Source of the DNA: Patellaria atrata CBS 101060
Taxonomy: Eukaryota
Assembly: GCA_010093705.1 (NCBI GenBank)
Contig: MU006090.1
Span: 434,001 to 498,000 of the forward strand
DNA length: 64,000 nucleotides
Reading direction: 5' to 3'
A program made the translations under genes and the position numbers. Shown here in pieces: positions 27,791 to 63,435 of this stretch (positions are counted from its first letter, which is position 1; each line of letters begins with the position of its first letter). Under the pieces are notes generated by a model, which was given only the letters and a program-made list of their open reading frames with translations, had not been told where the DNA came from and searched no databases.

Positions 27791-28553
27791 GGCTAAGGTT
27801 TAGGAAGTTTCGGATATCTGAAGTGCGAGTTGAAAGGGAGATAACTGTTGCTAAAATGGATGTACTCTGAATGTGCTGGAGATGGGAACTGACGAGACGG
27901 GAATATTTCAGCGCTACCGCCTAACTGCTCTTCACAAATTTCACTTCCACCACCTCACATAAAAGAAAATGATGCCGCACATCAATCCTTAAGAATTCTA
28001 AAGGAGATTCTAGATAACTATATCAATTTCATCTTTTATTAGCCGTCAAGTAAGGACCAAAACAAATCTTGCCCTTTCAATCGACAAATTTACAAGGATT
28101 ATTTATGCCAAGATTTCGTTCATAGCTGTCACCTACAGGTCAACCTCTAGTCGAGGGATGCGGGTTGGTTGCGTCACATCCTGCACGTTTTTCTTTTCCA
28201 GTTGATCGTCATCTCCTTCTCGTCTCAACACGTCTTCCTACAATCCTCTGTTGCCTTACACCTTCGACACGTGAGATATTTTGATTTCCTACTTCCTTAA
28301 AGTCTCTCCCTAGCACTTTAACATTCTTATTTGCTTAAACTCTCCCTAACAGCATAGCGTGGCATGTGGGGTTGTGTTTGGCCTTTCCTTACCCTTGCAG
28401 GATCCTTCCCCTCCTCGAAGATACCCATATGACGATTTACAGTTGAGTTTTACGAACTGATGATACACTCCACCGAACCTTGACCTCTATACCCACCGAC
28501 CTAACCTCATCACCTACCTATCCAGACCAGGATAACGGTTACATTCCGCCACT

Positions 28554-31500
28554 ATGCTCGAGGGACTCGTTGCAAACCTGCTGAACAGGTTCTTGGGCAT
28601 GTATGTCCAGAACTTTGACCCAAAGCAGCTCAACGTTGGCATATGGTCGGGAGATGTTAAACTTCGAAACCTAGAGCTGCGAAGGGAGGCACTTGACCAG
28701 CTCAAACTCCCCTTGAACGTCGTTCATGGCCATCTTGGCAGCCTCACAATGTCAATACCGTGGTCAAATTTACGCGGCAAACCAGTAAGAGTAAATATTG
28801 AAGATGTGTTTCTCCTAGCTGCGCCTAAAGAAGATGCAGAATATAATGCAGAAGAAGAGGAGAAGAGGGCGCATAACCTAAAGATGGAGAAGCTCGATAG
28901 TGCAGAGCTTTTGAAAGAGAGGAATACTGAAGGTATGAGCATGGAAGAACAAAAGAAGAACCAGAGCTTCGTCGCAAGCTTGACCGCTGCAATCGTGGAC
29001 AATGTTCAAGTCAGTGTAAAGAACATTCACATCCGATATGAGGACTCGATATCAGATCCGGGTCACCCATTCTCCTTAGGTTTTACGCTTGAGGAGTTCA
29101 GTGCTGTAAGTACAGATGAGAACTGGAAACCTACGTTCATCCAGGGTGGTGCGCAATCCTCCCACAAACTTGCTACGTTAGGTTCCCTTGCCGTGTATTG
29201 GAACACAGATACGAAGCTCCTTGGGACTGGCAAAGGGACGCAGTCTAGAGACCATCAGGGCGTAGACCGGTCTGAGTTCATTGATAAACTAAAGAGCATG
29301 ATTGCTCGAGGTGACTCCTCCGAGGAAGCAGCTAAACATCAGTTCGTCCTCAAGCCCGTTAGCGGCCGAGCGGGGCTCGAGATGGATAAGACTGGAAAAG
29401 CCGATCGGCCTAAGGTCAAGGCTCGGTTGTTATTTGATGAACTTGGTTTCATCATTGACGAAGATCAGTATCGGGATGCTCTCATGCTGATCGACCTCTT
29501 CCATTACTTCATCCGCCACCAGGAGTACAAGAAATTTCAACCTAAGTCAAGACCTACAGAGGATCCACGGGCTTGGCTACAGTTTGCAGGAACGGCTGTT
29601 TTAGAAAGGATCCACGATCGTAACAAGATATGGAGCTGGGCCTACTTCAAAGAACGACGCGATGACCGCATTGCCTATATTAGTCTCTTCAAGAAGAAGA
29701 AGAAAGACGAGAAGCTAACACCAGAAGAATTAGAGCAACTGGATAAGTTAGAACGTAAACTAACCTATGAAGATCTACGCTTCTGGCGATCGCTCGCAAG
29801 AAACCAACTTCGAAAGGAGAACGTTGGCGTCATCAAGAAGCAAGAGCCACAGAAGCAGACGTGGTCCCAATGGGTTTGGGGTGGCGGCAAGAAGCAAGAG
29901 CAGCAGCACACAGAAGACGACAGCCAAATGTCTGAACAACAGCGCAAAGAACTGTACAATGCTATTGACTGGGACGAGAAGAAGACCCTTGCCGAGGCTA
30001 TTGATATGCCCAAGGAATATGTAAAGATGCAAGTGGAGATGAGCCTTCGAACAGGTGGGTTTACTCTAAAGCGTGATCCGCATGGTAAGGGTACAGAAAT
30101 TCTTCGACTCCTATTCGATTCGTTCAGTACGAAGGTTTTCCAGAGAACAGATTCAATGTTAGCGGAAGTGAGTCTTGATGGCATGAGGTTGTACGATGGG
30201 ACTACTGAGGGTAATCTATTCCCTCAGATTATCACCATCAAGGATGCCCGGCCGGTCTCTGACGAAAATCGCATCGAGGAACTCAACGATGATGAGACTC
30301 CAAAACAGCTAGATGGTGCGACGAATGACGAAAATGAGGAGCCATTTTTCCAACTCTCGTTCGAGAATAACCCCCTAGATGGCAGTGCGGATACAGCATT
30401 GACTATGAAGCTGAAAGCAATGGAAATCGTTTATAACCCGAAGTTCCTAGTAGAAGTCGCAAAATTCTTCAAGCCACCGGAAAGACATATGGAATCTATT
30501 GCTGCTTTGATGGAAACTGCAGGCGAAACTGTAGAGGATATTCGAAAACAGACCCGTGCGGGTTTGGAATTTGCACTTGAAGAGCATAAGACCATAAACG
30601 CTCAGCTTGATCTGCAAGCTCCTCTTATCATCGTTCCTGATTCTGTAACAGAGAAGAGCAGTATTTGCCTGATAGTGGACGCTGGCCACATAAGTGTTAG
30701 CAGCGAACTGGTCGACAAGGATACTATGAAGAACATTCAGTCGAAACAGAAGCAACAGTACACAGAGCAAGACTTCAAACGACTCGAGAGCCTTATGTAT
30801 GACAAGTTCCTGTTGAAGCTAGATTCCACTCAGGTCCTAATCGGCAATTCTATCGAAGAGACCAGAGCTCAACTGGAAGATAAATCCTCCAAGCAGAACC
30901 TTCATCTCATTGACCGTATCAATATGGACTTCACAGTGGAAATATGTATCGTACCTAAAGGTACTGATCTCACCAAGTTCAAGGTTGTTGGTAATCTGCC
31001 TGTATTGCATGCGTCAGTCTCAGACTCAAAGTACAAGAAGCTCATGAAACTTATCGATGTTGCAATACCGAAGTTCGATAAGGATGAGAAAGAGACGAAG
31101 GAAATAGCTTATGGCGCCTCTGGACCATCTAATTTCAAACCAACTAAGAGCCAAGATGACCCCATAGGTAGACAGCGAGGCAAATCTTTCCAGTTTTCCG
31201 CACAAGATCATGAGCTTGTCATGGAAGAAGATAGCGATGACACCAAAAGCGATGATTATAAAAAGGCATCTCAGCCCAAGCAGAAACCAGATGTCAACCT
31301 CCGTCAACGGAATTTCGAGTTCAAATTTACCGCAGACAAACTACTTGGGTCGTTATACAAGTCTGACCCTGAAGGCAAGAAAGAAGATGAGCTTCTTGTT
31401 GAGCTCGTTGCTGAGCGATTTGGTCTCGACTTCTATCAGGAGCCTTTCAATATGGTTGCTGAAGTTCGACTTAGCTCTCTAGCAGTTGAGGACCATGTAG

Positions 31501-34500
31501 ATGAAGACCCCTTACCAGAATTCAAAAACCTCATTTCTTCAGAGGATACTGATGGCACATCTCAAAAGGACTTATTCTCACTCGAATTTGTCAAGGTCAA
31601 CAAAGATTCGCCTGAATTCATGACTAAATATGAGGGTATTGGGACCAACCTTGACGTCTCTGTATCTACCATCAATGTAATCGTAACAAGGAAGACTCTG
31701 CTCACCCTTCTTGACTTTGTCCTTCTGACTTTCACCAATTCTGAAACTCAGCAGCAACAGAAGCAGATTGAATCAAAATCCAAGGACGAGAATGATACTA
31801 CAGAAGTAGCTCCGCCGCCAACCCAGGATCCGGATAAGATCAGGATCAAAACGAATCTTAAGAGAATCGCTATTATTCTTAATAATGACGGAATTCGCCT
31901 TGCAACTTTGAGTTTGAACACGGCAGATGTTGCGGTTTTTGTGATGGGCCCCACCTTAAGAGTTGGTGCCAGATTAGGCAATCTCTCCTTGATCGATGAT
32001 GTGAATCAAGGTGTATCTGAGGAATCATCCCTACGGCAACTTCTTGCGATCGAAGGAGATGAGCTTGGAGACTTCAAATATGAGACCTACGATCCGCAGT
32101 CGGATGTATATCCCGGTTACGATACTTCTATATACCTGCGCGCAGCCTCTATCAAAGTAAATTTTATCACTGAACCGTTCAGGAAGATTATGGAGTTCGG
32201 TGTAAAGTTCGGTAAGATGCAAGCTATTTTCAACGCTGCTCGCCAGGCTGCGGCAAACCAAGCGAACCAGATACAGCAAAGGGCGAACAAGATGCACTTT
32301 GATATCCTAGTGAATACCCCAATCGTGGTGTTCCCCCGCATGGTCATTAGCGATAAGCCGGGTCGGGACCTGCTCACTGCTTACTTAGGAGAGATATACG
32401 CGAAGAATGAGTTCGTTGCGTTGGACGATTCGGAGCAGTCTGACATTGCCAACAAGATCATCGCTGGTATCAGGAACGTCCGGATGACCTCGAATCTACA
32501 TTATGAAGACGATAAATCGGAGGTGCTGGAGCTCATTGATAAAGTTGACATTGATTTCAAGATTACCATGGTTGATCACAAAGTAGAGTACAAACGCCCT
32601 GATCTGGAGATTGAAGGTTCAATGTCAGACATCCATCTGAGAATCACACAAGAGCAGATGCAGTTCGGACTAGAACTAGCTAGGTCCATCCCTGCGGCTT
32701 TTGCCATACAGGCAGACGAGGATGTCCAAGAAGATGTAGAACAAGAGCTGCCTGAATCTGTGGTAGAGCCAGCGAAAGAAGTCTCGGATGAAGAGAGCAT
32801 TGCCGAAGCTGAGGTGACCACCACGAGTCAGAACCCAGAACTAGGCGTAGGTGAGGAAAAGTGGACCAAGCTAGACCTAGTCTTCAAAGTGGGCTCCATC
32901 GGACTGGAACTGATCAAGGCAAAGGAAGACCAACCAGTTGGGGACCTTGAAGCTGCCAGCTTATCCAAATTCGCCCTCAACCAGACCAGCGTGAAGCTTC
33001 GCATGATCAGTGACGGTGCTCTAGAGTCTGAAGTCCTAATACAATCTTTCACTATCAAAGACAGCAGGACTCATGAAACGAACAAGTTCAGGAAGATCAT
33101 GTCTTTGATAAACAATGATGTTAAACAGCAGTTCATGGCTAGCGTTTCAATTTCTGGTAGTAAAGAGAGGAACCTCGTTGCCATTTTAACGATTGACAGT
33201 CCTAGAATTATCCTCGCTTTAGATTATTTGTTCGCTATCCAGCAGTTCGTCACTTCTGGCCTTGCTGTAGAAGAGCCTTTGGTGATCGAGGATGAGACTG
33301 AAGACGACGCTCTAACAGATCCGGATACTGCGAGTACTCATTCCAATACTGTTGCTAAGGTCACTGAAGACACAGATGAGAAACCAGTTGAAAACTCCGG
33401 CATGAGTATATCATTCCGCGTCAATGTGGTTGATGCACAGATCATTCTCATCGCAAATCCTGCCATCACTAACTCTGAGGCCATAGTATTGGGTACTAAA
33501 CAGGTGCTCGTTACCAAACAGCAAGCAATGACACTTCAAGTTGACAAAGTTGGGATGTTCCTTTGCCGAATGGATCATTTCGAGACGAATAGACTTCGTA
33601 TCCTGGATGATTTCAGCATTCAGACATCACTCGACATTCGCAACCAGGGCAAGGACTCTTCTCTCACAAGCATAAACGTTAATATTGAGCCGCTTGTGCT
33701 ACGCCTTTCGCTGAGAGATATCCTACTTGCAATGCAGATCTTCAATCGTGCCTCCGCAATGAACAGTGATGATAATAAACAACTCAAGGATCAGGAGCCC
33801 GAAAAGTTGAAGCAGATCAAGGGAACATCTAAAGTACCTACAAAACAGAGAGGAACGTCAACCGCACGGAAGTCCGCGAAGTCGATCAGAACTAAGAACA
33901 CTTCCACACGTAATCAAAGCACGGCAGTGGATCATCCCGGCTCTACTACGCTCAAGCGTGAGGAGATGAAAATTCAGCTTGAGGGTATCCGTGTGGTTCT
34001 TATTGGTGATCTTCACGAACTTCCAATTTTAGACTGGAGCGTGAAGGAATTCGATATTGACGTTCGGGATTGGTCTGGAGCAATGACTGCTGACACCAAT
34101 ATTGATACATTCTTCAATGTCTACAATTTCTCGAAGTCCGCATGGGAGCCACTCGTTGAACCTTGGCAATTAGGTTTCCACTTGTCTAAAGAGCAACACC
34201 CTGAGAGGATGTCTGTGGATCTGTACTCACGGAAAGCTCTAGAACTCACACTCACCTCTGCTACGATTGCCTTGGCGTCAAAATCCGCCCAGTTCCTATC
34301 CACTGATGAAGATATTCTATCGAAACCTCGAGGCACGGATGCTCCGTATAGAGTGCGAAATTATACTGGGTTCGACATTGATATTTGGGCAGCAGAGACT
34401 CGTAATGATGATGATGGTGCTGCCGCCAAGCTCACAGATGGAGAAGAAGCTCCCTGGCGATTTGAAGACCCTTCCACCACTAGAGAAACTCTTTCACCTG

Positions 34501-37500
34501 AGGGAGCAAGCGGCATTGTGGGGATTAGATTGCAGGGTAGTGGCTTTGACAGTGTTGAGAGAATACCTGTCACTCGTGAGGGAGAGGTCCTCTACGACCT
34601 GCGTCCACGCCAAGACAAAGTACTGCATCGCTTGTTGGTTGAAGTTACGCTTGGAGGTGATAATGTGAAGTACATCACTTTCCGCTCACCTCTACTTGTC
34701 GAGAATAAGACCCAGATACCAGTTGAGATTGGTGTTTTCAGCCCAGAGGAAGGGCATCTTCTCAAGATCGAAAAGATAGCACCAGGCGACGCGAGACCTG
34801 CACCAGTTGGTGCTGCTTTTATGCACTCGCTTATTGTCCGCCCAGATCAAGGTTTTGGATACACTTGGTCTGATCAAAGGCTGTTCTGGAAAGATTTGCT
34901 GAAAAAGCCTACGAGGACTATCATGTGCCGTGGCGAACAGGATCAACAGGCCCCTCCGTTCTACTTCCAAATGCATGCCGCTTTCGACAAGAAGAACTCA
35001 TTGACAGGGCAAGAGAACCCATTATCTCCTACCAGATATAGCTAACTATCTACTAGTGTTTACCCCTATATGCGCATACGTCTACATGCTCCGATTGAGG
35101 TGCAGAATCTACTTCCCTTCGATTTCAAGTACAGGATCTACGACGAGGACACGAAAAAGGACTGGACGAACTTCTTGCGCAAAGGAGGCGTCAGTCCCGT
35201 TCATGTAGTTGAGCTATCTCATCTTCTCTTATTGAGCGTAGATCTCCAGGATACTCCATTCAAGCCAAGCAAGTTCGCCGTCGTCAATTCAAATGACCGC
35301 GACAATTTCAAAAGAGAACGGACGCTGGAGATCAAAGATGACCAGGATCTCGCCTTGCGACTAAAGCTCCACTTCTTGTAAGTTTATCTCTGCTTATATA
35401 ATTCATCTTAGGCGCATACTAACAGATACAGGAATATACCCGATAGTGGCGGTGCGTTCAAGGTCACTGTTTATAGTCCCTATGTCGTCTTAAATCGAAC
35501 TGGAATAGAACTGGACGTTCGAAGTAAACAGTTCCTTGGCTCTACTAAAGCGGCCGCGGGTCAAAGTGTATTTGGAGGTCACGGTGACACCCGGAAACCA
35601 CTACCCTTTATGTTCAATTTTCCCACCGATGATCGCAAGAATCGTGCTCTTATCAAAGTTGGGGATTCGGGTTGGAGCAAACCGCAGAGCTTAGATGCCC
35701 TCGGAAGCAACTATGATGTCACGCTACCTTCATCATCAGGTCGATCTGAGATGCATATTGGTGTGACGGTCGATGAGGGAGAGGGCAAGTATAAACTGAC
35801 CAAAGTTGTCACGATCGCACCTAGATTCGTGGTTAAGAATAAACTCGGCGAGGAGATCAATATTCGGGAACCAGGATCTAGTGAAGTTATGTCACTAAAG
35901 AATGGCGATTTGCTGCCTTTAAGGTTTTTGAAGCAGAGCTCTGGACATCAACAGATATGTCTATGTTTCCCCGGCATGAACAACCAATGGTCCTCGCCAT
36001 TCAACATTTCTAATGTTGGCCCCCTTCATGTTAAACTTTCGAAAGCTGGCCAACGCCAAAAACTCGTGCGGGTCGACATTCTCATGGAAGATGCTACGCT
36101 TTTCATACATTGCAGCATTGAAACGAAGCATTGGCCCTTCTCGATGCGTAACGAAAGCGACACGGAATTCGTCTTTTTCCAAACAAACCCTAACCTAGAC
36201 GAAGACGAGGAGGACAGAACCTCTGGTTGGCGACCGATCAGGTATAGACTTCCGCCTCGGAGTATAATGCCGTACGCTTGGGATTATCCAGCCGCAAAGA
36301 GTAAAGAGGTGGTGTTAGTGGCCAACAACAAGGAGAGACACGTCAAACTGGCAGAAATCGGCAATCTGATACCAATGAAGCTACCACCAGTCCAAGGGGG
36401 ATCGCGTCAAAAAATCATTGACCTTAACGTAGTTGCTGATGGACCAACGCAGACTCTCGTTCTATCGAACTACAAGCCGTCTAAGAGTATCTACAAACAG
36501 AAATCTCCATCGAGAGCATCCGCATCTTCTTCCACTGTCTTTGAGGTTAAGGAGCAAGATATGGACACGACATTCCAAGCGCAGATCCGGTTTGCAGGCA
36601 TTGGGCTATCTCTAATCAACAGGCAGCTGAAGGAACTGATATACCTCACATTACGGGATATTGAGTTTAAATATAGCGACTCCCCATTATATCAGACCGT
36701 GAATGCGTCAATAAAATGGATACAAATCGACAACCAGCTCTATGGAGGCATCTTCCCGATTATTTTCTACCCTAGTGTTGTCCCCAAAACCGGTAAACAA
36801 TTGGAGGCTCATCCTATATTCAAAGCGATGGTGACCAGGGTCAAAGACGACTCATACGGAGTCCTTTACATCAAATACTTCACTTTCCTAATGCAACAGA
36901 TGACCATAGAGATCGACGAAGATTTCATATTTGCGTTGCTTGACTTTACCAAAGTACCCGGCGCCTCATGGTCAGAAGAGGTGGAAGGCAAGCTTTGGGA
37001 TGAGGAGCTCGATATTCCCGAACCTAAACAGGAACAATCCAGTCAAGATATCTACTTCGAGACTCTGCATCTTCAACCTATGCAGTTCGATCTCTCATTC
37101 GTCCGTACCGAGCGTATCAATGCCGAAGATACCATGACTATCCACAATCCATTCATGTTTGCCGTTAACGTGTTGACAATGTCCATCGGTAATGTGAACG
37201 ATGCGCCAATCAAATACAACGCTCTGGTACTCGAGAATGCTCGCGTCTCCATGAATGCGCTCTTGGCCAGCATAAAGAGCCATTACGTGCAAGAGTCCGT
37301 GAACCAAATACATGTCATCATCGGATCTGCCGACTTCCTCGGTAACCCAGTTGGTCTCTTCAACAACATCAGCTCCGGCGTCGCAGACATCTTCTACGAA
37401 CCCTACCAAGGTCTCGTCACCGAAAGACCCCAAGATCTCGGTCTCGGCATCGCAAAGGGTGCCTCCTCTTTTGTCAAGAAATCCGTTTTCGGCTTCTCAG

Positions 37501-38261
37501 ACTCTATGGCTAAGTTCACCGGCTCAATGTCCAAGGGCCTCGCCGCTGCCACCATGGACAAGGAGTTCCAGAACAAGCGTCGTATGAACCGCGCTCGCAA
37601 CCGGCCTAAACATGCTCTTTACGGCATCACATCCGGCGGCAACGCCTTCGCAGAGAGTTTAGCCAGCGGTATCGGCGGATTAGCTCGCCATCCACTCCAA
37701 GGTGCTGAAAAGGAGGGTGCCGCCGGCTTCGTCAAGGGAGTCGGTAAGGGTCTCCTAGGTATCCCGACCAAAGCAGCAATCGGCGCCTTCGACCTCGCAT
37801 CCAACATGGCCGAGGGCGTCCGCAACACCACGACCGTCTTCGACCAAGAAGGCCTCGATCGCGTCCGTCTAACGCGCTTCATCGGCCAAGACGGCGTCGT
37901 GCGCCCTTACTCGCAACGCGAGGCGCTCGGGCAGTTCTGGCTCAAGACCCTCGACTCTGGCAAGCACTTCGACGAGGAGTACATCGCGCACCTGGAGCTG
38001 CAGGGGAAAGACATGCTGATCCTGCTGACGTATAATAGTATCTTGCTGGTTAAGACGAAGAGGCTGCAGACGGAGTGGGAGGTCAAGCTCAAGGATATAC
38101 AGACGATCAGTAAGGAGCGTACGGGACTGAGTGTCGTGTTGAAAGGGGGTGTAAATGGCCCGTTCGTTCCCGTTGCGGATGAGCAGAGTAGGAATTGGTT
38201 TTATAGGCAGGTTGCTGTGGCTGTTAATGCGTTTAATGAGAGGTGGAGTGCTAAGGGGTGA
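28554..38261 (+). CDS. VPS13: VPS13 bridge-like lipid transfer protein; exons 28554-35008, 35057-35377, 35432-38261
   Basis: Chorein N-terminus MLEGLVANLLNRFLGMYV..QLNVGIWSGDV..IPWSNL; VAB/SHR repeats; WIQIDNQLYGG; GSADFLGNPVGLF; C-terminal ATG2_C/PH-like region. Two short introns restore the frame (VYPYMRIRL; LHFLNIPDSGGAFKV). Confidence 0.97.
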
Positions 38262-45854: not shown

Positions 45855-46215
45855 AAGACTTGAATTGCACACTGTACAATCTTAGAATGATGAATTTATG
45901 AATAATACTGTACCTCTTTGATGTAGAAACTAGAAAAGGTACTTTCGTACTTCATTAAGACCTTGAGTCTATTGACGCATCACAGACGCGATCAAGAACA
46001 AAGTGGGAACTTAATCGTACTGAAATCTCTGGAGTTGAGAGAACGATAAACTTTGGTTGTCGTTCTTTTATACATTTTGGGTCTAAAGATTAGCTCAGTC
46101 AACCGGTTCCGGTCCAGGCCTTGGCAGATGATACGTCGTGTTTTGAAGTTTGTTTGTCACCTTGATACATTTCATGCTTCATATCAATATGTGAGAACCC
46201 CATCCGCCTGCCAGT

Positions 46216-47520
46216 ATGCGCTATCCCCGTATTCTTTTCCGCATCTGGTACAGCACTACATATACGGTCCTTTTTATTATCCTCCTCGGATTAACCGCCG
46301 TTGCTCCAACCGATCATGTTTATCAAGCATTTCGCAGAAAGGAGCTCGAGAACATCTTCATTGTCGCTGGCGTTTATATTCTAACAATCGTAATTGCGAT
46401 ATTCATCTATGCAAGCCGGCTTTATACCAACCGTATCGTTCTCGCGGCCATCCCGAAGAGCTATATTCCGATTGAGCCAGGAGAGGTGGGCAAGAACGTT
46501 AGGCGTATAATCGTCAAGAACTTGAAAAGGAGCGCAACAATAGCTTGGGATTCGCGACCACGGGATACTAAACCAGAGTTGGGGGCAGCTGGGGGGACTA
46601 ACCCGCCGACTAGGGAGAATAGCGGTCCTCTGAACTTCCGGAAGCGTAGCCAATTCTTCGAGACAACCGTTATACCTATTGATCCAGATTCACCCCCTTG
46701 GGGTCACATTGCGCATCCGGGATGGTCATCCCCTAGTCTTGAAGACTTGCCAAACCTGCAGTTCCGGCCTATTATAATGGAACTACCCAACCTAATCGAA
46801 GCGAAAGCCGTATCATTGGCACCACCCAATCCTATCTTTGAGACTCTTCGCCCAGAACTACAAGATATTGAACCTACACCCGACGCAAGGATTGTGGAAC
46901 TACTCCAGCGTTCTATCACAACGGGCCTGCGCGAGTATTTGGCGCAATTGAGCTCAGTAGGTCTCATCAATCCACCGCATCTGGGAGCGCAGTTCCTCGC
47001 GGAGTATGAATATGCGCGTTTCTCCACATTCCCACTCACAGAGGAACAATTTAGAAGCTTAATGGCGGTGTTCGCTCGAATTTTAAGCGGAATGGTTGAA
47101 CTGGATCCGGAATTTGTGGACCAGGTACAGTCTGCTGGAATAGATTCGGAGGAAACGAGTATTGTCCCTTTATCGGTGTCGTCTAGATCTTCAAACTCCA
47201 ATGGTTCAGCGATTCGTTATAGAACCCCAACGTTGGCTTCCGTACACTTTGAGACGCGAACTCAACCGCACAACCTTCATCGAAGTCAAAGTGGGCCTTC
47301 AGGACTCAGGACGCCGAGCAGTCAGCGGACGCCGATTCCACGGACGCCTTCTATGATATCCCTAGGCTCTGTAAAGCGACATCCTTCGGCACATTCTACT
47401 TCGTCTGGTCTTGCGAGTTCCTCATCCTCATCCCTACGGTCCGCCCAAAGCGTCATCAGACTCACACCAAATCCCAGACCTGGTGATCTACCTTATCAGT
47501 TCGACTTTAGCGGGAGCTAA
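46216..47520 (+). CDS. DLT1: DLT1-like (defect at low temperature) membrane protein
   Basis: Two N-terminal transmembrane helices (FRIWYSTTY...), YASRLYTNR..LAAIPKSYIPI, WGHIAHPGW, FLAEYEYARFS..LTEEQFRSLM, Ser-rich tail. Confidence 0.75.
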   Translation: MRYPRILFRIWYSTTYTVLFIILLGLTAVAPTDHVYQAFRRKELENIFIVAGVYILTIVIAIFIYASRLYTNRIVLAAIPKSYIPIEPGEVGKNVRRIIVKNLKRSATIAWDSRPRDTKPELGAAGGTNPPTRENSGPLNFRKRSQFFETTVIPIDPDSPPWGHIAHPGWSSPSLEDLPNLQFRPIIMELPNLIEAKAVSLAPPNPIFETLRPELQDIEPTPDARIVELLQRSITTGLREYLAQLSSVGLINPPHLGAQFLAEYEYARFSTFPLTEEQFRSLMAVFARILSGMVELDPEFVDQVQSAGIDSEETSIVPLSVSSRSSNSNGSAIRYRTPTLASVHFETRTQPHNLHRSQSGPSGLRTPSSQRTPIPRTPSMISLGSVKRHPSAHSTSSGLASSSSSSLRSAQSVIRLTPNPRPGDLPYQFDFSGS

Positions 47521-49453: not shown

Positions 49454-49459
49454 ACGCGT
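49454..49459. promoter_or_regulatory. Possible MluI cell-cycle box (ACGCGT) upstream of the OB-fold gene
   Basis: ACGCGT about 115 nt upstream of ATG 49573. A single hexamer, so it could be chance. Confidence 0.35.
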
Positions 49460-49572: not shown

Positions 49573-50718
49573 ATGAGGACCGAGTATCAAAGATCTGGAG
49601 ACAAAGGGAACATCATTCTCTTCACTGGCGCACCCAGTTCTCAGGACCTGGATTGGAGCAAGGATAAGCTACTCAACCACATCATACCATCACTAGAGAA
49701 GTACATTGGCAGCAAAGAAAATGAGCTACTTCAAACCGTCTCATCCAGTAATGGCCAGGCGAACTCTTCTCTCACCTCTTCCTTCGAGCGAAGTCCCAAA
49801 TGGCGCTCCATGTATATCCACCCTAAACGTCTCCTAACCGAGCTCTCCCAATTCAGCAGCACAACCAGTACCAAACCTTCCATACCCTCGAGCAACACCA
49901 GTTTCCAAAACCTCGCAAAGCGGCTCAAACACTACGACAATGGATCTTACCCTTCAGACACAGATACCAGTTCCCCACCCCTCTCCTCCCCAGACTCCCC
50001 AGAGCCCGATTCCACCTACCTCGAAGCCTCCTTCCTCCTCCACGAGAGTAGCGTCTCCCCCACCGCGCTAGAAGAACCCGAACACTCCCTCCTAGACGAC
50101 ACAACCTTCCTCTCCACACACCCACCCTCACCATCCCAACCCCTCCCCTTGCCCCAAATCACAGACCTCGCTCACCTCCCTTCCCCCCAAACCCTCAAAC
50201 CCAACTCCCACCCCCTCTACCGCAGACCCTACAACCTCCTCACCGCCGTCCTGTCCATCTCCCCAATTCGCGGTATCACACTCCGCAACGGACGCACGAT
50301 GGACCTGCAGACGCTCCTTGTGATGGACGATACGAAAGCCCCGTTTAACGTCGCGTTCTGGCTCTTACCTCCCTCTCTTCCTGGTCCAGCCCATCACGTC
50401 CCTAGATCTGTGATAGGGTTTAAAGAGCAGCAGTTGAGAGACGCACTGGAGGAGGTGAGGAGGGGCGATGTGCTGTTGCTTACGAATGTGGTGTTGACGG
50501 TTTGGGAGGGGAGGGTGGAGGGACAGAGTTGGCGGGGGAGGACGGGGATTAGGATTTTAGAGGGGCGTGGGAGGGTTGGTGTGGGAGGAAAGGGGAAATT
50601 GGAGAGGGTTAGGGAGGCGGTGAGGAGGTATTTGCCTTTTGATGGTGGGTATGGGGGGAGAAGAGGGAAGAAGGGGAGGGGTTTGCTGGAGGATGACTTG
50701 CCGATGGATACGCAGTAA
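49573..50718 (+). CDS. OB-fold nucleic-acid-binding protein, SHLD2 (FAM35A) OB1-like
   Basis: Intact 381-aa ORF. N-terminal IILFTGAP..LDW..PKWRSMY, Ser/Pro-rich linker, then an OB-fold pattern YNLLTAVLSI..ITLR..LQTLLVMDDT..FNVAFW..VRRGDVLLLTNVVLTVWEGRVEGQS; ends LPMDTQ. Confidence 0.72.
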   Translation: MRTEYQRSGDKGNIILFTGAPSSQDLDWSKDKLLNHIIPSLEKYIGSKENELLQTVSSSNGQANSSLTSSFERSPKWRSMYIHPKRLLTELSQFSSTTSTKPSIPSSNTSFQNLAKRLKHYDNGSYPSDTDTSSPPLSSPDSPEPDSTYLEASFLLHESSVSPTALEEPEHSLLDDTTFLSTHPPSPSQPLPLPQITDLAHLPSPQTLKPNSHPLYRRPYNLLTAVLSISPIRGITLRNGRTMDLQTLLVMDDTKAPFNVAFWLLPPSLPGPAHHVPRSVIGFKEQQLRDALEEVRRGDVLLLTNVVLTVWEGRVEGQSWRGRTGIRILEGRGRVGVGGKGKLERVREAVRRYLPFDGGYGGRRGKKGRGLLEDDLPMDTQ

Positions 50719-52530: not shown

Positions 52531-55085
52531 CAGAGAATCGGAGCCTGTGACCGAAGAATTATTCTCTCGGAGCTTCAGCTCGCCAAGATGTTCGCTCCAA
52601 ACCCCCCATGGCCCTCTAAACTCGGCTTTCCACCTCCACTATGACAACTCTTTTTCTATTACCGGATAGTGCCTGTTCCTAAACTCCATCATGGGTTTGT
52701 GCAATGCAGGCCTCGAGGACGGACTGTGTGTCTCGAACCGAGAAGTCTTACCGTTTCTTCCCTTGCTAAAGCGCAGTAACCCCGAACTCAACCAGCCCAC
52801 AGTCCCAAGCCACCAGTGAAGAGGGATAGATGGAATACCTAGGATGAGCTTCAAAGCGAGCACGTAGGAATGTGTGGTAAAGGAATAATGGTATGATGGA
52901 GGCTCTACAACTATCTGGAGTAATTGAATACCAAACATCCAACGGGGCATCACTTGAAAGCATCACAACCCTTCAAGTGTCTCCACTTGACGATATAGGC
53001 CCGATACCGATACCTAATAGAGCAGCTCATGCGCCTGTATAGCAATACGGGCGCTGGAGATCCATTAGGCACTCATCTCCCATGTCCTTTAGGCAATTCC
53101 GCCTATGTTGTAAGTCTATCAAATTACGGAACCATCCTCTTCTCCTGATATGGACTGCAGAAATGAAATACCATGGGAACCAATAACCGCATTGATCGGA
53201 CATCATTGCGTTAATTTAACATATAGCATAGTAAAGAAATAATCTGTCCTCAAAGAAGAGGGTGCTTCGAGTGATCGATGAGTCTCGAATATAGATCGGA
53301 CGAACACCTGTAACGCCGGACTCCATACCATCCACAGCGTCTTACTAGTCTCCGTCTACTATTATCTGCAGTATTGAGAGTTGGACAGAACTAGTAGCGT
53401 AAATTCAGTCTTACGTCCCCATGTCCCCACGGGCTGGTGGAGCATATTCCACACCATTTATAGTAATCCCTCAGTCTCACCGGAGTGTCAATCTTTATCT
53501 CTTATGATTCCATACGCTATGCACTAGTGATTTTTAGAAGGACAAGACTAGTGTAGAAATAACAATGAAATGGGGTTGCTTGTAGAGTACGTGTAGTGAA
53601 GTAGTCTTTGGAGCTTTTGGGTGTTTTATCATCTAATCCCTATCTCTCTATCTCATATGCTCCGCTGCTACACATTGTGATTATGCTCCTTAATCTTTTA
53701 GTTCTCCTTGCTCTTTGACTACCCGATATAGTCAATCAGTCTTCTGTTCTCAGTTCGTTTTCCCAGTCTTTCCAAGTCCCTCTCTCCTTCAGGGGCTTAT
53801 CATTTGTTTCTCCTGACTCAATAGCTTTTGTGGTTTCCGATTCTCTTTCTCATTTATCGTCTTGCTTTGGACTACGTCACTCTAATAGTGCACTTTTCCG
53901 TTATAATCCGCCAATAATTTGGCCAAGCAGCCCTTAAGATTCCTAGCTATTGCATGTTTGCTTCTCTTATCCCCCATCTGTCCCTCAGTCCTCCAGAGCA
54001 TACTGAGTGTGGTAGGAATGAAATATCAGCCCTGGGTCTTTACTATGTCCATGCAAATGGTTTCCTACGCTCTATTATCATTGAGAACAGTATCATGGCA
54101 CAGGGATCCGGATTTTAATCCTATTATCATTACTCGTCCCGCTTCTGCACCTATGTCTGTAAGCTCTTTCTATTTTTTATGGACCTGGTGTATCGTCCCT
54201 CCTTATTTTGGGTCTGGTACGCAGTCTTGTAGCCCCGATGTACGTATTCGAACGGTTGTCTCTCTTCATGTTCCAGTTTCCTTCCGATCCCTTGTCAACT
54301 AGATGTTCCGTACCAGATAAGGGCTGAAAGCAGACGACGATCCAATCCTTCTAGCCTTAAAAAGCGACGTTGGCATCGGTTAAGGGTAGAAAGGGAACAT
54401 ATATCTCGTATAATCGAAAGCTAATACCGGATCCAATTTTGCTCGTTCTGTTATGTATACCAGTCCGCAGCTAGTTCAGTTAGGCAGGAAATTAATCTCT
54501 TATAGCCGTATGGTCTGTACTCGTCTTTTTCAGTTCCCTCTTCTGTGTTATCAATACCCACGTCTGAGCTCAGTTCGTTATTCTTTGGTTTTGGCTCCAA
54601 GGAAGGTAAAACACCATAGAGTCGATATGAAGTTTCAATCCGATTTAACAAATATGTGAGCAATCACATTTTCAACCCGGGTCTAGAAAACTAGGTATTA
54701 TAAAGAGTTGTGATTGTATGATGAGGTCTATCTGTTTGGCTCGGGGGTTTGGGTTGTTTCTGATCTACCACCTCACTTCAAATTTTCTACACGCACACTC
54801 ACCTCTACATAACATAAATTACATCCAGTTACGTAACTTAAACGTATGTAAATGATTTCATTTCTGCATCTCCCCTTACTCGCAATTTGTCAATCTCTCC
54901 GACAATCACACGTTCACCTTCTGGTTTACTTCTTGGCCAGAGTGCTCCTCGGCCTGCAGCCAGGCGACGGAGATTGCATTCTTTTCAACTCACCAATTGA
55001 CTGCCTCATATCCACCGTTCCTTCCCTGATTGCAGATTGCAGACAAATGTAATCGACAAGCTGACTATGTCATGATTCTCCTAGT

Positions 55086-57477
55086 ATGTCGTCTGGAACA
55101 GGCATTGAGAGCTCAGTTCGTCTCCAGCCATCAATAGCATTAACTGCCACCGATGACCCCGGCCTTACAGACCATACCGTCCGACGAATTATTGTCCAAC
55201 ACAACGAACTACAAGTAAAGACGGTACGTTGTCGAGGTCAGAAGCCTACCCTAAAGCCAACAAAGGAGCTTGTCAACGAACACCTCTTGTACCTAAGACA
55301 AGCCGATTCCAATACTAGCGTAATGAACGAAGTGAATCTTTTGGAAGCAGCGTATTCAGCTTCAATTAAACGCTTAAATACATTAGCGAAGCTCTCCATC
55401 AGCGACCTCAAGATCGGGAGCCATCATACAGGAGGCGTTCTTATCGGAAAGAACCTCGTAGATGCTTCAAATGGTGCAACGAGACGAACAATTATTCAAG
55501 ATAGCTGTGGAGATGCTATTAGGCTGCATCTTTGCAATTATGGTCCTAAGGGGCCTCACGACCCGAGACTGATCCTGAAGGACACCATAATCGCCATAAA
55601 GGACCCGTATTACATATTCATCACTAAAGACAAAGCTGCTGTAAAAGTAGATCACCCGTCCAATCTTATAGTTCTTCCTGCATTTGGTCATCATGTTCCT
55701 TCTATATGGAAAAAGGACCTCTCTGCGGATCCTACGGAGATGAATGCCATCGCGGATTCTTTCGACAATGAAGTACCTAAAGATTCTCGCACTATAGGCC
55801 GTCTCTATGACTTGTTTGATTGGTAAATGGACTGGATCTCCCAGTTTCTTAACCTACATGTGCTAGCATAACTCAATAGGTGTAAGGCACGACTACTAAA
55901 TAAGTTATCGTCGTATACGAGAAAATACAGATTCTACGTACGCTCGCAGAGTACTACCTGTATTCCAACCGATTTGAAGACTCCTTGCGGGAAACCAGCA
56001 TTATGTTTGAAGAAATGAAGAAACTGCCTAAAGCTAACGTATCACACAAACCAGACCCTCACCTGCAAGCCCACATCGCCGCATATAGAGCTAGACAGTA
56101 CGAGCAATGCTTAAGATATATGAACGCGTCTCTATAGGAAATAGAAGGCGCGAATGACAAGAAGATGAACGAGTTGAGGGTTGAATTACTACAAAACCTT
56201 ATGCTTGTAGAAGAACGGAGGAATGAGACTCGTGGTAAATTCAACTTCTACCGCCATTTTCTTACGATAAAGAAGAATGGAAGGGTTCATTTCGCCGATT
56301 ATTTCGAAGCTGTCGGGGCTAAAATGACAGTAACCCCTTGCGAAACTCTTCTTTTCAGTAAGAGACCATATAATGCAGGCGAGCGGATTCTGGTAGACGG
56401 TGCTGGCAAGACATGTACAACGTATAATTCTAATGGAGCTTCTACAATTGAAGGTCCGCGCGCCTTGCTATATATTCAAATAGCGCGCGAGTTATCTCGC
56501 ACTCCATCCTTGGCAACAGATTACTTCAAACTGTACAACAGAGGTATTACCAGGGCACACGGCGTTGGAAGTATTGTGGATGGAACCCCGGTCACTGATA
56601 TGTAAGCATTTTCTTCTATAACATATTCGCGTTGATTACTAACTGTGATGTAGCTTCTTAGTCCAGACCATTGCGGAGCACAACAGCCATTTCTTCCCCG
56701 AACGGGCTCTGCTCTTCAACGAGATTAATACTCCCGGAACGAGCACCTCCGCCGGACTATGGATAAAAGCATCATATATCGACCATTCTTGTGTTTCTAA
56801 TTGCTCCCGCAGCTTTCTTAGCGACATGCTCATTGTCCGTACCGTGAAGCCTATTGCCATAAACGAGGCGATGACGTTTTCGTATATCAATCCCCTTCAA
56901 AGCTACCAAGGCCGTCACCGAGATCTCCGACAATGGAATATCTCTTGTACGTGTAGACTATGTAAGTACGAGGGGTCCCTTCCATCAGCAGTTCTAGATC
57001 GTCTTGAAGCCCTCGCGGGAGAACTAGAGGATCTCATGAACCGAACACCCAACGTACGAGTAGGAGACCAGACCATAAAGAAGGTGAAATCATGTCTCCA
57101 GAAACTTCAAAGCGCATACGATCCTGACCTAGGTCTCCCTTGTCCCATAGCCGTCAAGGGGCCTCTGGCTCACCAGAAAGCTCTGGGACCAGGATGAACT
57201 TGTGGGCGCGATGACGGCCGCTGTAGCGACGGCTGACTGTTGCGGGTTAGGATTCTATGGAGTCAATGGGAAGGGGTCCGGGATTGCGGGTGAGCATATG
57301 ATTGTTCTCCCTGGGCTCCTAATTGCGCTAAGATATGCCTGTATGGCATTCGAATTTTTCGGGATGGACAAGGTGTTGATGCGTGTGCGACCCTTAATCC
57401 CTCCTCTCTTCGAGGCTGTACGCGGCTATCCAATTCAAGACGATACGCGGGCCTACTGGGAGGGCAGGGTGGCGTAG
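55086..57477 (+). pseudogene. Disrupted TPR + SET-domain gene (fungal TPR/SET family)
   Basis: N-terminal ISDLKIGSHHTG..IIQDSCGDAIRLHLCN..IAIKDPYY..VKVDHPSNL; TPR-like helices; SET/post-SET GLWIKASYIDHSCVSNCSRSFLSDMLIVRT..FSY..WNISCTCRLC. Introns 55823-55879 and 56602-56653. Apparent frameshifts near 55915 and 57175, and an in-frame TAG at 56135. Confidence 0.72.
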
Positions 57478-59113: not shown

Positions 59114-60757
59114 ATGGGTAAAATATGTGGTGCTCTTCGTTTCAGCGCTCTTTGGGCCATCGTCGGAAGTTTGTAACTTGTGGTTGCTCTGTGTTGCAAT
59201 ACCTGCTAACCTTCATCAAGCTCTTAATGCGAAAGCGAGTCCTTTGGACGGCGTTTCTTGGAATTCAACAAACGTAGCGTCTTCTTCCGTGGTCTCCGAA
59301 TCTAACGACCGAGATATCATGTCCATCTTTGATTTTGAATCTGCTAGCGCGGAAGCAACACAGCTAATGTCTATCTTCGGTTTCGATTCTGAACCATCCG
59401 CCAGCGTAGAAGCGACACAGACCATGTCTATCTTTGAGCTGCATTCTGGACTATCGGCTAGTACTCAAGTTACGACCGCTTTCACTTCTACTATCCTTTT
59501 ACATGAGACAGCCTCCCTACAAGTTGGCTCAGTTCCAGGATTGGATACTAGCTCAGATGCAGTACTAGCGGACATAACTTCATTCATCCCCTCTTCGGTG
59601 CAAGATACAGGTAGAGCTGTGCATCATCCACGATATGGGCGTTTGCTGACTCTAATGCCATAGTGTCAAGCGCTTCTCCAAAAGCTGTATCGTCCCCAAA
59701 TCCTTCTCTATTGACGCCCGAATCAGAAGGCGCAAGTGGAACACTCAGCGTATCGTATATCAGCAGCAGTATCGATTCGGCTACCATCGGTGCCATTCTA
59801 GCGCAATCATTACTACCTGCGGAGCTTGTAGAATCGTCTATTCTCGAACCGACCGCCCCAGTTTTCAGTTTGATACCCACAGTTAATGAAATACTAGCAC
59901 CTATCGCCACCAGTTTATCTTTCTCACAATACTCGTTAGAGGAGATGGAAGCACCGACCACCACAGATGCTATCGAACTTGCTGTAACATCCGTAACACA
60001 AGACATACAATCAGCTGTAATTACCCCCGCGGCTGAATTACCAATCCCTCAACCCTCATCCGGTGTAACTGTAGACTTAAGTCGTTTCTTACTACCGGGC
60101 GATACTTTTTCTATATTCTCTCAAACAATCGACGTTGGAGAAGTTTCTTTCACTCTCGAGGAATCCACGATACCCTTGGTGGAAGATGCCCCGCTAGAAA
60201 TCGCTGCCGAATCTTCCGACAGTTCTTCATCAACATTGACTGGTAACCTCGCATCTGTCCTCCCCGACGGTTCAGCAATAGTAATTACCGACGAGTCTAC
60301 AAACACACCTGTCACGATCAAGGGCGCCCTGGTCCGAACCGCCGGTCATAGGACCAACGCCGATCGGACCTTAGTGACTCTGAATGGCACACCCCTACCG
60401 CTAGCTATTGGTGACGAAGCAACAGTGGTAGTTTGGGCATCTGATGGCTCGTTCTCCACCGCAGTAGGAGAAGTGATTGCGTTTGTAAGCGGCGGAGGTG
60501 CGGTTGTCGTTGCGAGTGAGGATGGTACACCAGCAACCACGACCGGTTTAGTTATTGGTGTCCCTACTTCGACAGCTTCACCAGAACCTGGAGTGGTGAC
60601 TCCTACGGCGGCGATCACTTTGACGCCATCGAGTGAAATACCAGTTGCTCCGTACCCTACAGTGCAAATGGGGGTTGGCAGTCGCATTGTTTTGCCGTTG
60701 AATCACGGGTTAGTAGCACTTGTTGGGTTTTGGATGGGGCTTCTAGTGATGGTGTGA
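59114..60757 (+). CDS. Secreted Ser/Thr-rich, probably GPI-anchored cell-surface protein; exons 59114-59168, 59221-59610, 59664-60757
   Basis: Removing intron 59169-59220 (GTTTGT..GCTAAC..AG) gives the signal peptide MGKICGALRFSALWAIVGTLNAKA-SPL. Intron 59611-59663 joins the two ORFs. S/T/A/E-rich body; C-terminal GVGSR + hydrophobic tail LVALVGFWMGLLVMV. Confidence 0.78.
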
Positions 60758-61878: not shown

Positions 61879-63435
61879 TCATCCATCTGAATCCGAATTC
61901 GACATCACCACGTCTCCGGTTTCGACTTCCATAGGTTCAAAAGCTTCGAAACATAGCGAAGTTTCGGCGGGAAGGGGGGGAACGTCCCTCATTGTGAGAT
62001 CAAGAAATGGAATTTTATCACATGGGAATGGATAATCACGTGGATGAGCCCGCTTTCCCTTTCTTGCAGCAGTCAACAACTTGCGTTGACGAGTCTTAAA
62101 AGCTGGGGATTTGCGCTCCAGACGGGCCTGATAAAGGATCCTCTGAGCTAGGCTTGACCCCCGGTCGTTTGGTTTACGGCGCTTGTAGCTTCTCATCACC
62201 GGGCTTTGACAATCTTCATCGTCGAAATTCAATATCGATATGTTACGCTTGAAGGGGCCATGCACTATCAATGGAGATTGGATTACACCCTCCATCTCAT
62301 CAAGGTTTTCGTTTGTTGACCTTTCGTCAAGAAGCTCACCGAACACATATACAGGCGGAGCGTTTATATGACTCAAAGTTTGTCTTTGATCATCCAGTGC
62401 GTGAGGCCTGTCGCTTGCGTTTGAGATAATCTGAGCAAACCTTTGGTGAGCGATACGAACAGGGTGATGGTTCTCATCACTATAGATAGTGCTACTCTGG
62501 GGTGCCTGTAGCTTTTCCCTGTTGATGGCCAGTGCTTGATTTTCATCCTCGTGGACAATGCTTCTCTGGGGTGTCCGTGGCTCTTCCCTGTTGATGGCCG
62601 GTGTCTGGTTTTCTTCTAGAGTCATTGACCTCGACTGTCCGTATTCATTCTCACAGGATTCGACGATGTCATTCTCTCCAGGGATTGGTGAGTTATCGGT
62701 GGAGTTGTCGACATAAACCATGACGTTATTTGTGACTGGGGTTGTCGGACCATGGCTAACTGGAGAAGCTGGTCTATCATCATTAGTAAGATCAACGACT
62801 TCGATGGCGACGCTGTTTATGATGAGATGCTCTGGCTTCGCGTTGACCTTTCGTTCGAATCTCACGACAGCTTCTGCGGCTGGACTACCTTCCACTTCGA
62901 CGAACGTGTCATCTTGATATATTTCTGGCGTCTTGTCTTGGCCAAAACGTTCCATTGCCTTACGGAAGTTCAAGTCGTCGGCCTGTGTATCGGCAGCCTC
63001 CGAGTTGCGTGCCCTCTCTTCAGTTCCTTCGACCTGTTGCCGCATGGGTGTCGACTCATTCTGGAAAACCGGCGAGTTGGGCGGTAAGCAAGACCGGAGG
63101 TATCGATTTTCCTCCTCCAAATATTTGATCTTACCATCTTGCGCGCAGAGCTTGTCGTTGGCGTCGATCAACATCTTGCGTTGATCCTCGATATGTTTCA
63201 TCCACCCTGCATACTCGTTTGGTATGGCGGTGGAGGCTGGAAGGGCTTTAGGAGAGGTACTAGCGTAGAGACGATTGAGGGTTTCGATTAGATAGGGATC
63301 TTCAATTCGAGCTGGTTCATGTTAGTTGATCTTGTCATCAAGTGGAAACTTTGCAAGAGTCTTACGAGGGGTGTTGATGTTATTATTCGCACCAGGAGTG
63401 GGGCTTCTACTGTTCTTCTTTCCTTGGCTGCTCAT
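61879..63435 (-). CDS. Hypothetical (orphan-like) protein with coiled coil, internal 23-aa repeat and basic NLS-like segment; exons 63435-63366, 63311-61879
   Basis: ATG in ACAAAATG context at 63435. A 54-nt intron 63312-63365 (GTAAGA..CTAAC..CAG) removes an in-frame TAA and joins the long ORF. Coiled-coil-like KHIEDQRKMLIDANDKLCAQDGKIKYLEEENRYLRS; YKRRKP. Confidence 0.65.

Follow-up and report, generated by a model that had tools for sequence, protein, structure and literature searches.

The question raised by this locus is whether a filamentous ascomycete encodes a counterpart of the Shieldin subunit SHLD2 (FAM35A). The gene under study lies on the forward strand of contig MU006090.1 of Patellaria atrata CBS 101060, in a stretch of 64,000 nucleotides (nt) that was analysed as a whole and is termed the window in the following. 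It consists of an intron-less coding sequence (49573..50718, +; standard code) that runs from ATG to TAA, with the TAA stop included, and encodes a protein of 381 amino acids (aa), termed P0001. The original prediction had proposed a Rev7-linked, SHLD2-like protein with short amino-terminal motifs, a disordered linker and a carboxy-terminal oligonucleotide/oligosaccharide-binding (OB) fold. The sequence strings on which it relied are all present, at the positions given, in the translation of the open reading frame (ORF) 49573-50718 (+): IILFTGAP comprises residues 14–21 (nt 49612-49635) and PKWRSMYI residues 75–82, and the OB strings span residues 220 to 319, with YNLLTAVLSI (220–229), ITLR, LQTLLVMDDT (245–254), VAFW (260–263), VRRGDVLLLTNVVL (296–309), WEG and QS. 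Start, stop and the intron-less model fit the protein family described below, because many homologues align from about residue 11/12 through the carboxy-terminus (381). Our favoured answer is that P0001 represents a fungal, minimal single-OB counterpart of SHLD2 that would dock on Rev7, a reading that we hold tentatively and at somewhat less than an even chance.

The fungal family and its OB fold

We searched 1.84 billion representative proteins with P0001 as the phmmer query and obtained 438 proteins at E ≤ 1e-3 and 155 at E ≤ 1e-10, a conservation of the gene far beyond chance. The alignment derived from this search, A1, comprises 149 rows, namely the query and the other 148 phmmer matches listed, leaving out P0002. 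This protein of 2683 aa was rejected as a family member despite its E-value of 6.7e-43: it carries about 40 identical tandem repeats of 51 aa, each of which weakly matches residues 302–331, so that the E-value represents many weak matches summed, a type of false positive that could lead automated family construction astray. Family members range from 332 to 438 aa (5th–95th percentile) with a median of 372 aa, and the closest homologue of P0001 among the matches listed, from Zymoseptoria, is 34% identical (E 3e-25). When the OB domain of P0090, a typical member, served as the seed of another search, 539 of 690 candidates scored E ≤ 1e-3, and none of the 120 proteins listed from this search carried a precomputed Pfam domain. 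Word-index searches with the whole of P0001 and with a 119-row alignment as queries returned only the query itself or four proteins, probably reflecting candidates swamped by the low-complexity linker.

The family sits in the databases as hypothetical proteins, a minority of which are automatically tagged SHLD2_OB1; the UniRef names read 'hypothetical', 'nucleic acid-binding' or, for two members, 'POT1/Cdc13 domain-containing'. The named genera include Zymoseptoria, Cenococcum, Elsinoe, Myriangium, Eremomyces, Bogoriella, Acidomyces and Aaosphaeria, which we take to be Dothideomycetes, and Ophiocordyceps, Pyricularia and Sodiomyces, presumably Sordariomycetes. Further members come from many Helotiales, which we place in the Leotiomycetes, from lichen-forming fungi, which we assume to be Lecanoromycetes and Candelariomycetes, and from Cirrosporium, amounting on these assignments to five or six Pezizomycotina classes in all. 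The family thus defined spans Pezizomycotina. It probably also reaches across Dikarya, where the basidiomycete part is based on the ESM Atlas, in which the neighbours of P0001 were an Ascomycota cluster (114 members, 0.97) and a Basidiomycota look-alike cluster (70 members, 0.96).

The AlphaFold2 model of P0001, calculated from A1 with a mean predicted local distance difference test (pLDDT) of 69.9, contains exactly one OB barrel followed by a helix at about residues 190–355. Together with a short amino-terminal lead-in and the carboxy-terminal helix, we delineated the domain as residues 195–358 (50155..50646, +). Residues 220–229, 233–236, 242–251 and 258–264 form the first strands, residues 280–294 a helix, residues 300–311, 314–318 and 325–329 the remaining strands, and residues 340–353 the carboxy-terminal helix, for which the family consensus is K-x2-R-V-R-x-W-V-x2-F-V. 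Within residues 191–350, nine of 16 ten-residue blocks have a mean pLDDT of at least 90, and the lowest blocks reach 63 (271–280) and 71 (211–220). D252 and W263 are invariant in 149 of 149 rows. A second AlphaFold2 model, calculated for P0090 with a 117-row alignment, agrees with this topology (mean pLDDT 74.8). The Ser/Pro-rich middle of P0001 (about residues 45–190) is of low confidence save for a helix at residues 145–158. Alignment and models therefore bear out the proposed architecture of short amino-terminal motifs, a disordered linker and one carboxy-terminal OB fold.

The five-stranded barrel with a helix between strands 3 and 4 matches solved OB domains that bind single-stranded DNA (ssDNA). 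Foldseek yielded 45 matches in the PDB at E ≤ 0.001, of which the top ten are RPA and SSB; Pyrococcus RPA (1.4e-6), Sulfolobus SSB (1.9e-6), human RPA70 (2e-5) and hSSB1 (6e-5) lead, and POT1, CST and Teb1 lie near 2e-4. VIA-align against 48,161 representative chains ranked Oxytricha TEBP alpha first (12.3), followed by RPA70 (11.8), archaeal RPA (11.7), Ustilago RPA (11.6), Teb1 (11.4) and S. pombe Pot1 (11.3). Since solved RPA, SSB and POT1 structures are all matched, we place the modelled domain in the ssDNA-binding class of OB folds, with no one family singled out. The only PDB sequences retrieved with the family profile were those of Sulfolobus SSB (E 0.003) and of an RPA-related protein from archaea. 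The GD[ED]T and F-R-G blocks of the family align to the Sulfolobus SSB chain, and position 311, which is aromatic in the family (F 109, W 24, Y 16 of 149), falls onto its Phe79. This Phe79, like the Trp that follows the GDET block, is a base-stacking residue. Fold, invariant W263 and the aromatic residue aligned to Phe79 together suggest that the OB domain binds ssDNA.

Linear motifs and the amino-terminal parallel with SHLD2

The layout of the family is fixed and consists of motif 1, motif 2, a Ser/Pro-rich linker with a helix, the OB domain, the carboxy-terminal helix and a tail. Motif 1 (residues 14–34; 49612..49674, +) reads [RK]-[VIC]-I-[FLI]-[LF]-[TA]-G-A-P-x4-L-[DN]-W-x4-L-L and sits within the first ~20 residues of the family proteins. 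Its conserved columns in the 149 rows of A1 are G19 (141), A20 (131), P21 (142), L26 (125), W28 (119) and L33 (129), and when only non-gap rows are counted, G19 is found in 141/142 and P21 in 142/142. For motif 2 (residues 75–82; 49795..49818, +; consensus P-x-W-R-[SA]-[LIV]-P-L), the corresponding non-gap counts are 143/144 for W77 and 140/144 for R78. The original prediction had made its case depend on the FxGAP and WR motifs being conserved among fungal homologues, and both turned out to be near-invariant wherever they are present.

Two further motifs lie outside the amino-terminus. The mid-linker helix motif (residues 149–160; 50017..50052, +), F-[LY]-E-H-S-[FL]-A-x-H-E-S-S, is conserved at F149 (124 of 149 rows), E151 (114), S153 (139), A155 (115) and S160 (117), and may constitute a third partner-binding element; the mid-linker helix of the P0090 model spans residues 105–125. 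The tail L-P-x-D-T-Q (residues 376–381; 50698..50715, +), with the family consensus LPPDTQ, forms the carboxy-terminus or lies a few residues short of it, usually being the very last residues, and is conserved at L376 (124 of 149), P377 (142), D379 (135), T380 (132) and Q381 (118). It had gone unmentioned in the original prediction. In two samples of the family, [DE]T[QP] occurs within the last 25 aa of 125/148 and 113/115 proteins, and this acidic D-T-Q tail might act as a docking peptide or as a site for a Tel1/Mec1-type kinase. The strict motif 1 pattern was found in 92/148 and 62/115 proteins of the two samples and all three sequence patterns in the same protein in 81/148 and 61/115; truncated gene models and variants are among the proteins that miss a pattern.

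The hydrophobic strand with G-A-P (pLDDT ~60; 58–77), the W-R segment (~50) and the tail are of low-to-middling confidence in both AlphaFold2 models and show no secondary structure there; the segment right after G-A-P has a pLDDT of 77–86. For P0001, the values are ~60 for residues 11–20, ~85 for residues 21–40 and ~51 for motif 2. Based on these profiles, the low-confidence motifs would fold on a partner, and the piece after G-A-P may pack on the OB domain.

Human SHLD2(1–52) binds open REV7 and SHLD3 via two strands, the first comprising Val7, Ile9, Phe10 and Trp11 and the second Lys37, Ile39, Leu41 and Tyr43, as given in the excerpts consulted of Liang et al. 2020 (PMC7181697). The human amino-terminal strings quoted in the original prediction agree with the residue numbers in these excerpts, and for this reason the human–fungal comparison is a fair one. 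In the layout common to both, the extreme amino-terminus carries a hydrophobic strand with G-A-P behind it, and a W-basic strand comes next. This parallel to SHLD2 is suggestive, and sequence searches lend it no statistical weight.

Weak SHLD2 affinity of the OB domain and rival explanations

SHLD2_OB1 (PF21669) is the best Pfam match of P0001 and the sole one at E ≤ 0.01 (E 1.4e-4). Among 128 members scanned individually, it is the only Pfam family above its cutoff in any member: on P0074 (Eremomyces) it gives the best E-value of the family (1.5e-6; 28.4 bits vs a cutoff of 26), and two other members show weak matches. In the same 128 members, REPA_OB_2 (best 21.7 vs 27), Ssb-like_OB (19.1 vs 24) and OB_MEIOB_N (14.9 vs 27) never reached their cutoffs. 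PF21669 is annotated on 19% of the 114 members and 26% of the 70 members of the two nearest ESM Atlas clusters, for which no other family is listed. Furthermore, the closest non-family predicted structure to residues 195–358 in the Atlas is the OB1 part of a vertebrate SHLD2, with a template modelling (TM) score of 0.70, followed by MEIOB (0.66 and 0.64), archaeal RPA-type rows (0.59–0.64) and an Ssb-like row (0.59). The family shows a weak SHLD2_OB1 preference. Its overall build is likewise that of SHLD2, with an amino-terminal partner-binding strand motif, a long disordered linker and a carboxy-terminal OB domain of the ssDNA type.

Several observations weigh against reading the protein as an SHLD2 counterpart. 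P0001 scores 22 bits vs the PF21669 gathering cutoff of 26 and covers profile positions 19–68 of 138, and those members for which the coverage was seen match SHLD2_OB1 only over strands 1–3 (~19–70 of 138) or very weakly. Matches at E ≤ 1 in 119 members are divided among Ssb-like_OB (21), REPA_OB_2 (20), SHLD2_OB1 (14) and OB_MEIOB_N (7), and at E ≤ 0.01 the counts are 3 for Ssb-like_OB, 5 for REPA_OB_2 and 4 for SHLD2_OB1. The TM margins are small, with MEIOB within 0.04 of SHLD2. No SHLD2 chain was retrieved at E ≤ 10 from the PDB sequence set with the full protein, its first 90 residues or the family profiles, and none is among the solved-structure matches listed by Foldseek and VIA-align; P0001 likewise has no match to PF22779 or PF15793 at E ≤ 10. 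Both AlphaFold2 models contain one OB fold vs three in SHLD2, where SHLD2_C and a second OB are included, and SHLD2 clusters in the ESM Atlas are roughly 900 aa long compared with the 381 aa of the fungal protein. The mid-linker helix motif and LPPDTQ are additions relative to SHLD2, and no source consulted ties either of them to it. At the amino-terminus, the motif order follows human SHLD2 as had been claimed, but the spacing does not, being about twice the human one: the median distance from G-A-P to W-R is 46 residues in the fungal family vs ~21 in human, the latter taken from the residue numbers in the PMC7181697 excerpts and the string quoted in the original prediction. The fungal motif is also one residue longer in the stretch from the hydrophobic strand to G-A-P, and the amino-terminal resemblance, which lacks statistical support, involves about 8 plus 3 residues. 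Finally, P0001 itself deviates from the family at seven positions that are at least 90% conserved (217, 219, 247, 251, 307, 320 and 349), with Ala at position 349 in place of the family Trp of the carboxy-terminal helix.

The specific affinity for SHLD2 on which the original prediction depended is weak. SHLD2 provides the top Pfam match and the top Atlas neighbour, but the P0001 match is partial and below its cutoff, and the weak matches are split among OB families; likewise, the proposed Foldseek comparison of the AlphaFold model returned the OB fold, with RPA and SSB rather than SHLD2 as best solved structures. With the Pfam score below threshold and one OB fold in place of three, membership in SHLD2 proper is not established. 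That the protein is a true minimal single-OB SHLD2 orthologue of filamentous ascomycetes and basidiomycetes, docking Rev7 via I-F-L-T-G-A-P and P-x-W-R, we consider less likely than not. If it were, Shieldin would be older than the fungus–animal split and would have been lost in model yeasts, and the protein would partly account for the predominance of end joining in the break repair of filamentous fungi.

The strongest alternative is an independent factor of repair, replication or meiotic recombination that derives from RPA or SSB, is similar in function to hSSB1/SOSS-B or MEIOB, and uses its linear motifs to bind a partner other than Rev7. The likeness to SHLD2 would then reflect OB similarity at the clan level and a chance short motif. 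The division of the weak Pfam matches, the PDB profile search with its SSB and RPA-related matches, the Foldseek top ten, the narrow TM distance to MEIOB and the shortness of the amino-terminal likeness are all in line with such an origin, which we regard as a substantial possibility, if still a minority one. It is at odds with the single passage of a Pfam cutoff by SHLD2_OB1, a level that none of the families expected from it attained in any individually scanned member, and with the nearest Atlas clusters, where PF21669 alone is listed. The architecture of hSSB1, in which the OB fold is amino-terminal, or of MEIOB, which has three OB folds, fits no better than that of SHLD2. Compared with RPA70, archaeal RPA, crenarchaeal SSB and hSSB1, the fungal protein lacks other RPA domains and a zinc ribbon and carries its OB fold at the carboxy-terminus, and to our knowledge the linear motifs of the family are absent from all four.

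We judge it improbable that the family serves filamentous fungi as an accessory ssDNA-binding protein of the telomere end or of the CST/POT1 type. Such a role is suggested by UniRef, which calls the Zymoseptoria and Pyricularia members 'Telomeric single stranded DNA binding POT1/Cdc13 domain-containing protein', an annotation that also speaks against an SHLD2 counterpart, and by POT1 and POT1PC clusters at 0.81–0.86 in the ESM Atlas feature search, where scores under 0.9 are leads only. However, P0001 matches neither POT1 (PF02765) nor POT1PC (PF16686) at E ≤ 10, and no POT1-type family is among the 25 listed of the 28 Pfam families matched by 119 members at E ≤ 1. The Foldseek matches to POT1, CST and Teb1 are about 100-fold weaker than those to RPA and SSB, and POT1 is not among the matches listed by Atlas predicted structure. 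The fungal protein also differs from POT1 OB1 and ciliate TEBP alpha in having a single OB fold, with no second OB and no TPP1/Tpz1-binding region.

A spurious or decaying ORF devoid of function is hardly credible: P0001 is unusually divergent, with a mean OB identity to the family of 0.34 vs about 0.46 for typical members and the seven near-invariant positions changed, but its 381-aa frame is intact, the start and stop of the family are kept, as are its four linear motifs and the two invariant residues (D252 and W263), and it has hundreds of orthologues.

Genomic setting, possible role and relation to Shieldin

The gene shares a divergent promoter of 546 nt with an upstream Suc_Fer-like gene, and its downstream neighbour is a gene for an Aha1-type Hsp90 co-chaperone on the minus strand. 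More distant genes of the window encode VPS13, a mitochondrial-type Hsp70, an FGGY kinase and others. The genes around 49573-50718 are thus ordinary housekeeping genes, and no HORMA gene was found among the 28 larger ORFs of the window. An ACGCGT site resembling an MluI box (49454-49459, no strand assigned) is present 114–119 nt upstream of the ATG, as the original prediction had stated. Its interpretation as a sign of S-phase or repair expression was rejected: the 64-kb window contains 6 copies of the hexamer vs 7.6 expected, a count that was equalled or exceeded in 79 of 100 shuffles. Because this frequency is not beyond chance, we give the site no weight. Elsewhere in the window, the VPS13-type lipid-transfer gene (28536-38258, +) consists of two long frames, 28536-35042 and 35412-38258, the gap between which is most likely an intron. 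In addition, four long frames of 253–480 aa have no Pfam match at E ≤ 1e-4 (46195-47517, +; 55065-55823, +; 59615-60754, +; 61882-63321, −).

The best-supported mechanism for the family is that of an ssDNA-binding adaptor, in which the carboxy-terminal OB fold would bind single strands and the linear motifs would tether it to partners. The amino-terminal strand with G-A-P, the P-x-W-R motif, the mid-linker helix and LPPDTQ would provide four docking sites. For a minimal SHLD2 counterpart, we infer that Rev7, a HORMA protein, would be joined by the amino-terminal strand and the W-R strand, and probably by a second adaptor as well, and that this tethering would place the ssDNA-binding module at resected DNA ends. 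There it would limit resection and favour end joining, with the D-T-Q end as a possible Tel1/Mec1-type phosphorylation or docking site.

In the literature, Shieldin is treated as absent from yeast or is analysed only in vertebrates, as seen in the excerpts consulted of Badugu et al. 2024 (PMC11616998) and Findlay et al. 2018 (PMC6138439). The original prediction had described Shieldin as usually regarded as a vertebrate or metazoan complex, and the treatment as vertebrate-only in the parts consulted of PMC11616998 and of a Cryptococcus knockout-atlas preprint (10.1101/2024.10.22.619677) agrees with this. According to the same parts of the preprint, Shieldin subunits besides Rev7 are undetectable outside vertebrates, a Shieldin-like non-homologous end joining pathway associated with Rev7, Rif1 and Rev3 operates in Cryptococcus, and tracing such a fungal pathway past basidiomycetes needs new handles (10.1101/2024.10.22.619677). 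We count the reported pathway in this fungus in favour of the SHLD2 reading. Our searches of the literature on SHLD2/shieldin with fungi, OB-fold and Aspergillus found no description of a fungal SHLD2-like protein.

The protein closest in proposed function is Cryptococcus neoformans Njf1 (CNAG_00817), likewise fungal and, in the parts of the preprint consulted, a proposed component of that Shieldin-like pathway. There, end joining requires Njf1, which co-purifies with Rev7, Rif1 and Rev3 in a single-replicate purification and whose predicted Rev7 contact is SHLD3-like (10.1101/2024.10.22.619677). The portions of the supplement consulted describe a protein of 650 aa with no predicted domain that is confined to Tremellomycetes, and for these reasons we rejected Njf1 as a member of the family; it would be a candidate for the type of partner, not a relative. 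Six proteins from the Njf1/Rev7 purification were checked in the tables seen (five from Zeocin ranks 1–49 and one from untreated ranks 13–58), none of which has an OB fold; they carry WD40, Marvel, GINS, TPR, xylose-isomerase-like and SH3 domains and were set aside. CNAG_01749 (141 aa), the sole OB-only hypothetical protein among 39 of the 47 OB-fold (IPR012340) rows, does not belong to the family either. PF21669, Shieldin, SHLD2 and POT1 are absent from the Cryptococcus domain table, and within the rows named here the preprint tables yielded no Cryptococcus member of the family.

The family described here would offer a new handle of the kind that tracing the fungal pathway needs: it is small, widespread and unstudied, combines an SHLD2-type first-OB signal with an SHLD2-like amino-terminal layout, and is predicted to bind ssDNA. 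If it did not bind Rev7, it would still be a conserved, unnamed putative ssDNA-binding factor with four conserved docking motifs. If the Rev7 tethering holds true, the end-protection machinery would date from before the fungus–animal split and could be studied in a simple genetic system, and the gene could be a new target, in addition to Ku and ligase 4, for making gene targeting in filamentous fungi more efficient. An SHLD2-like protein found across Dikarya would surprise specialists and would make the origin of Shieldin directly testable.

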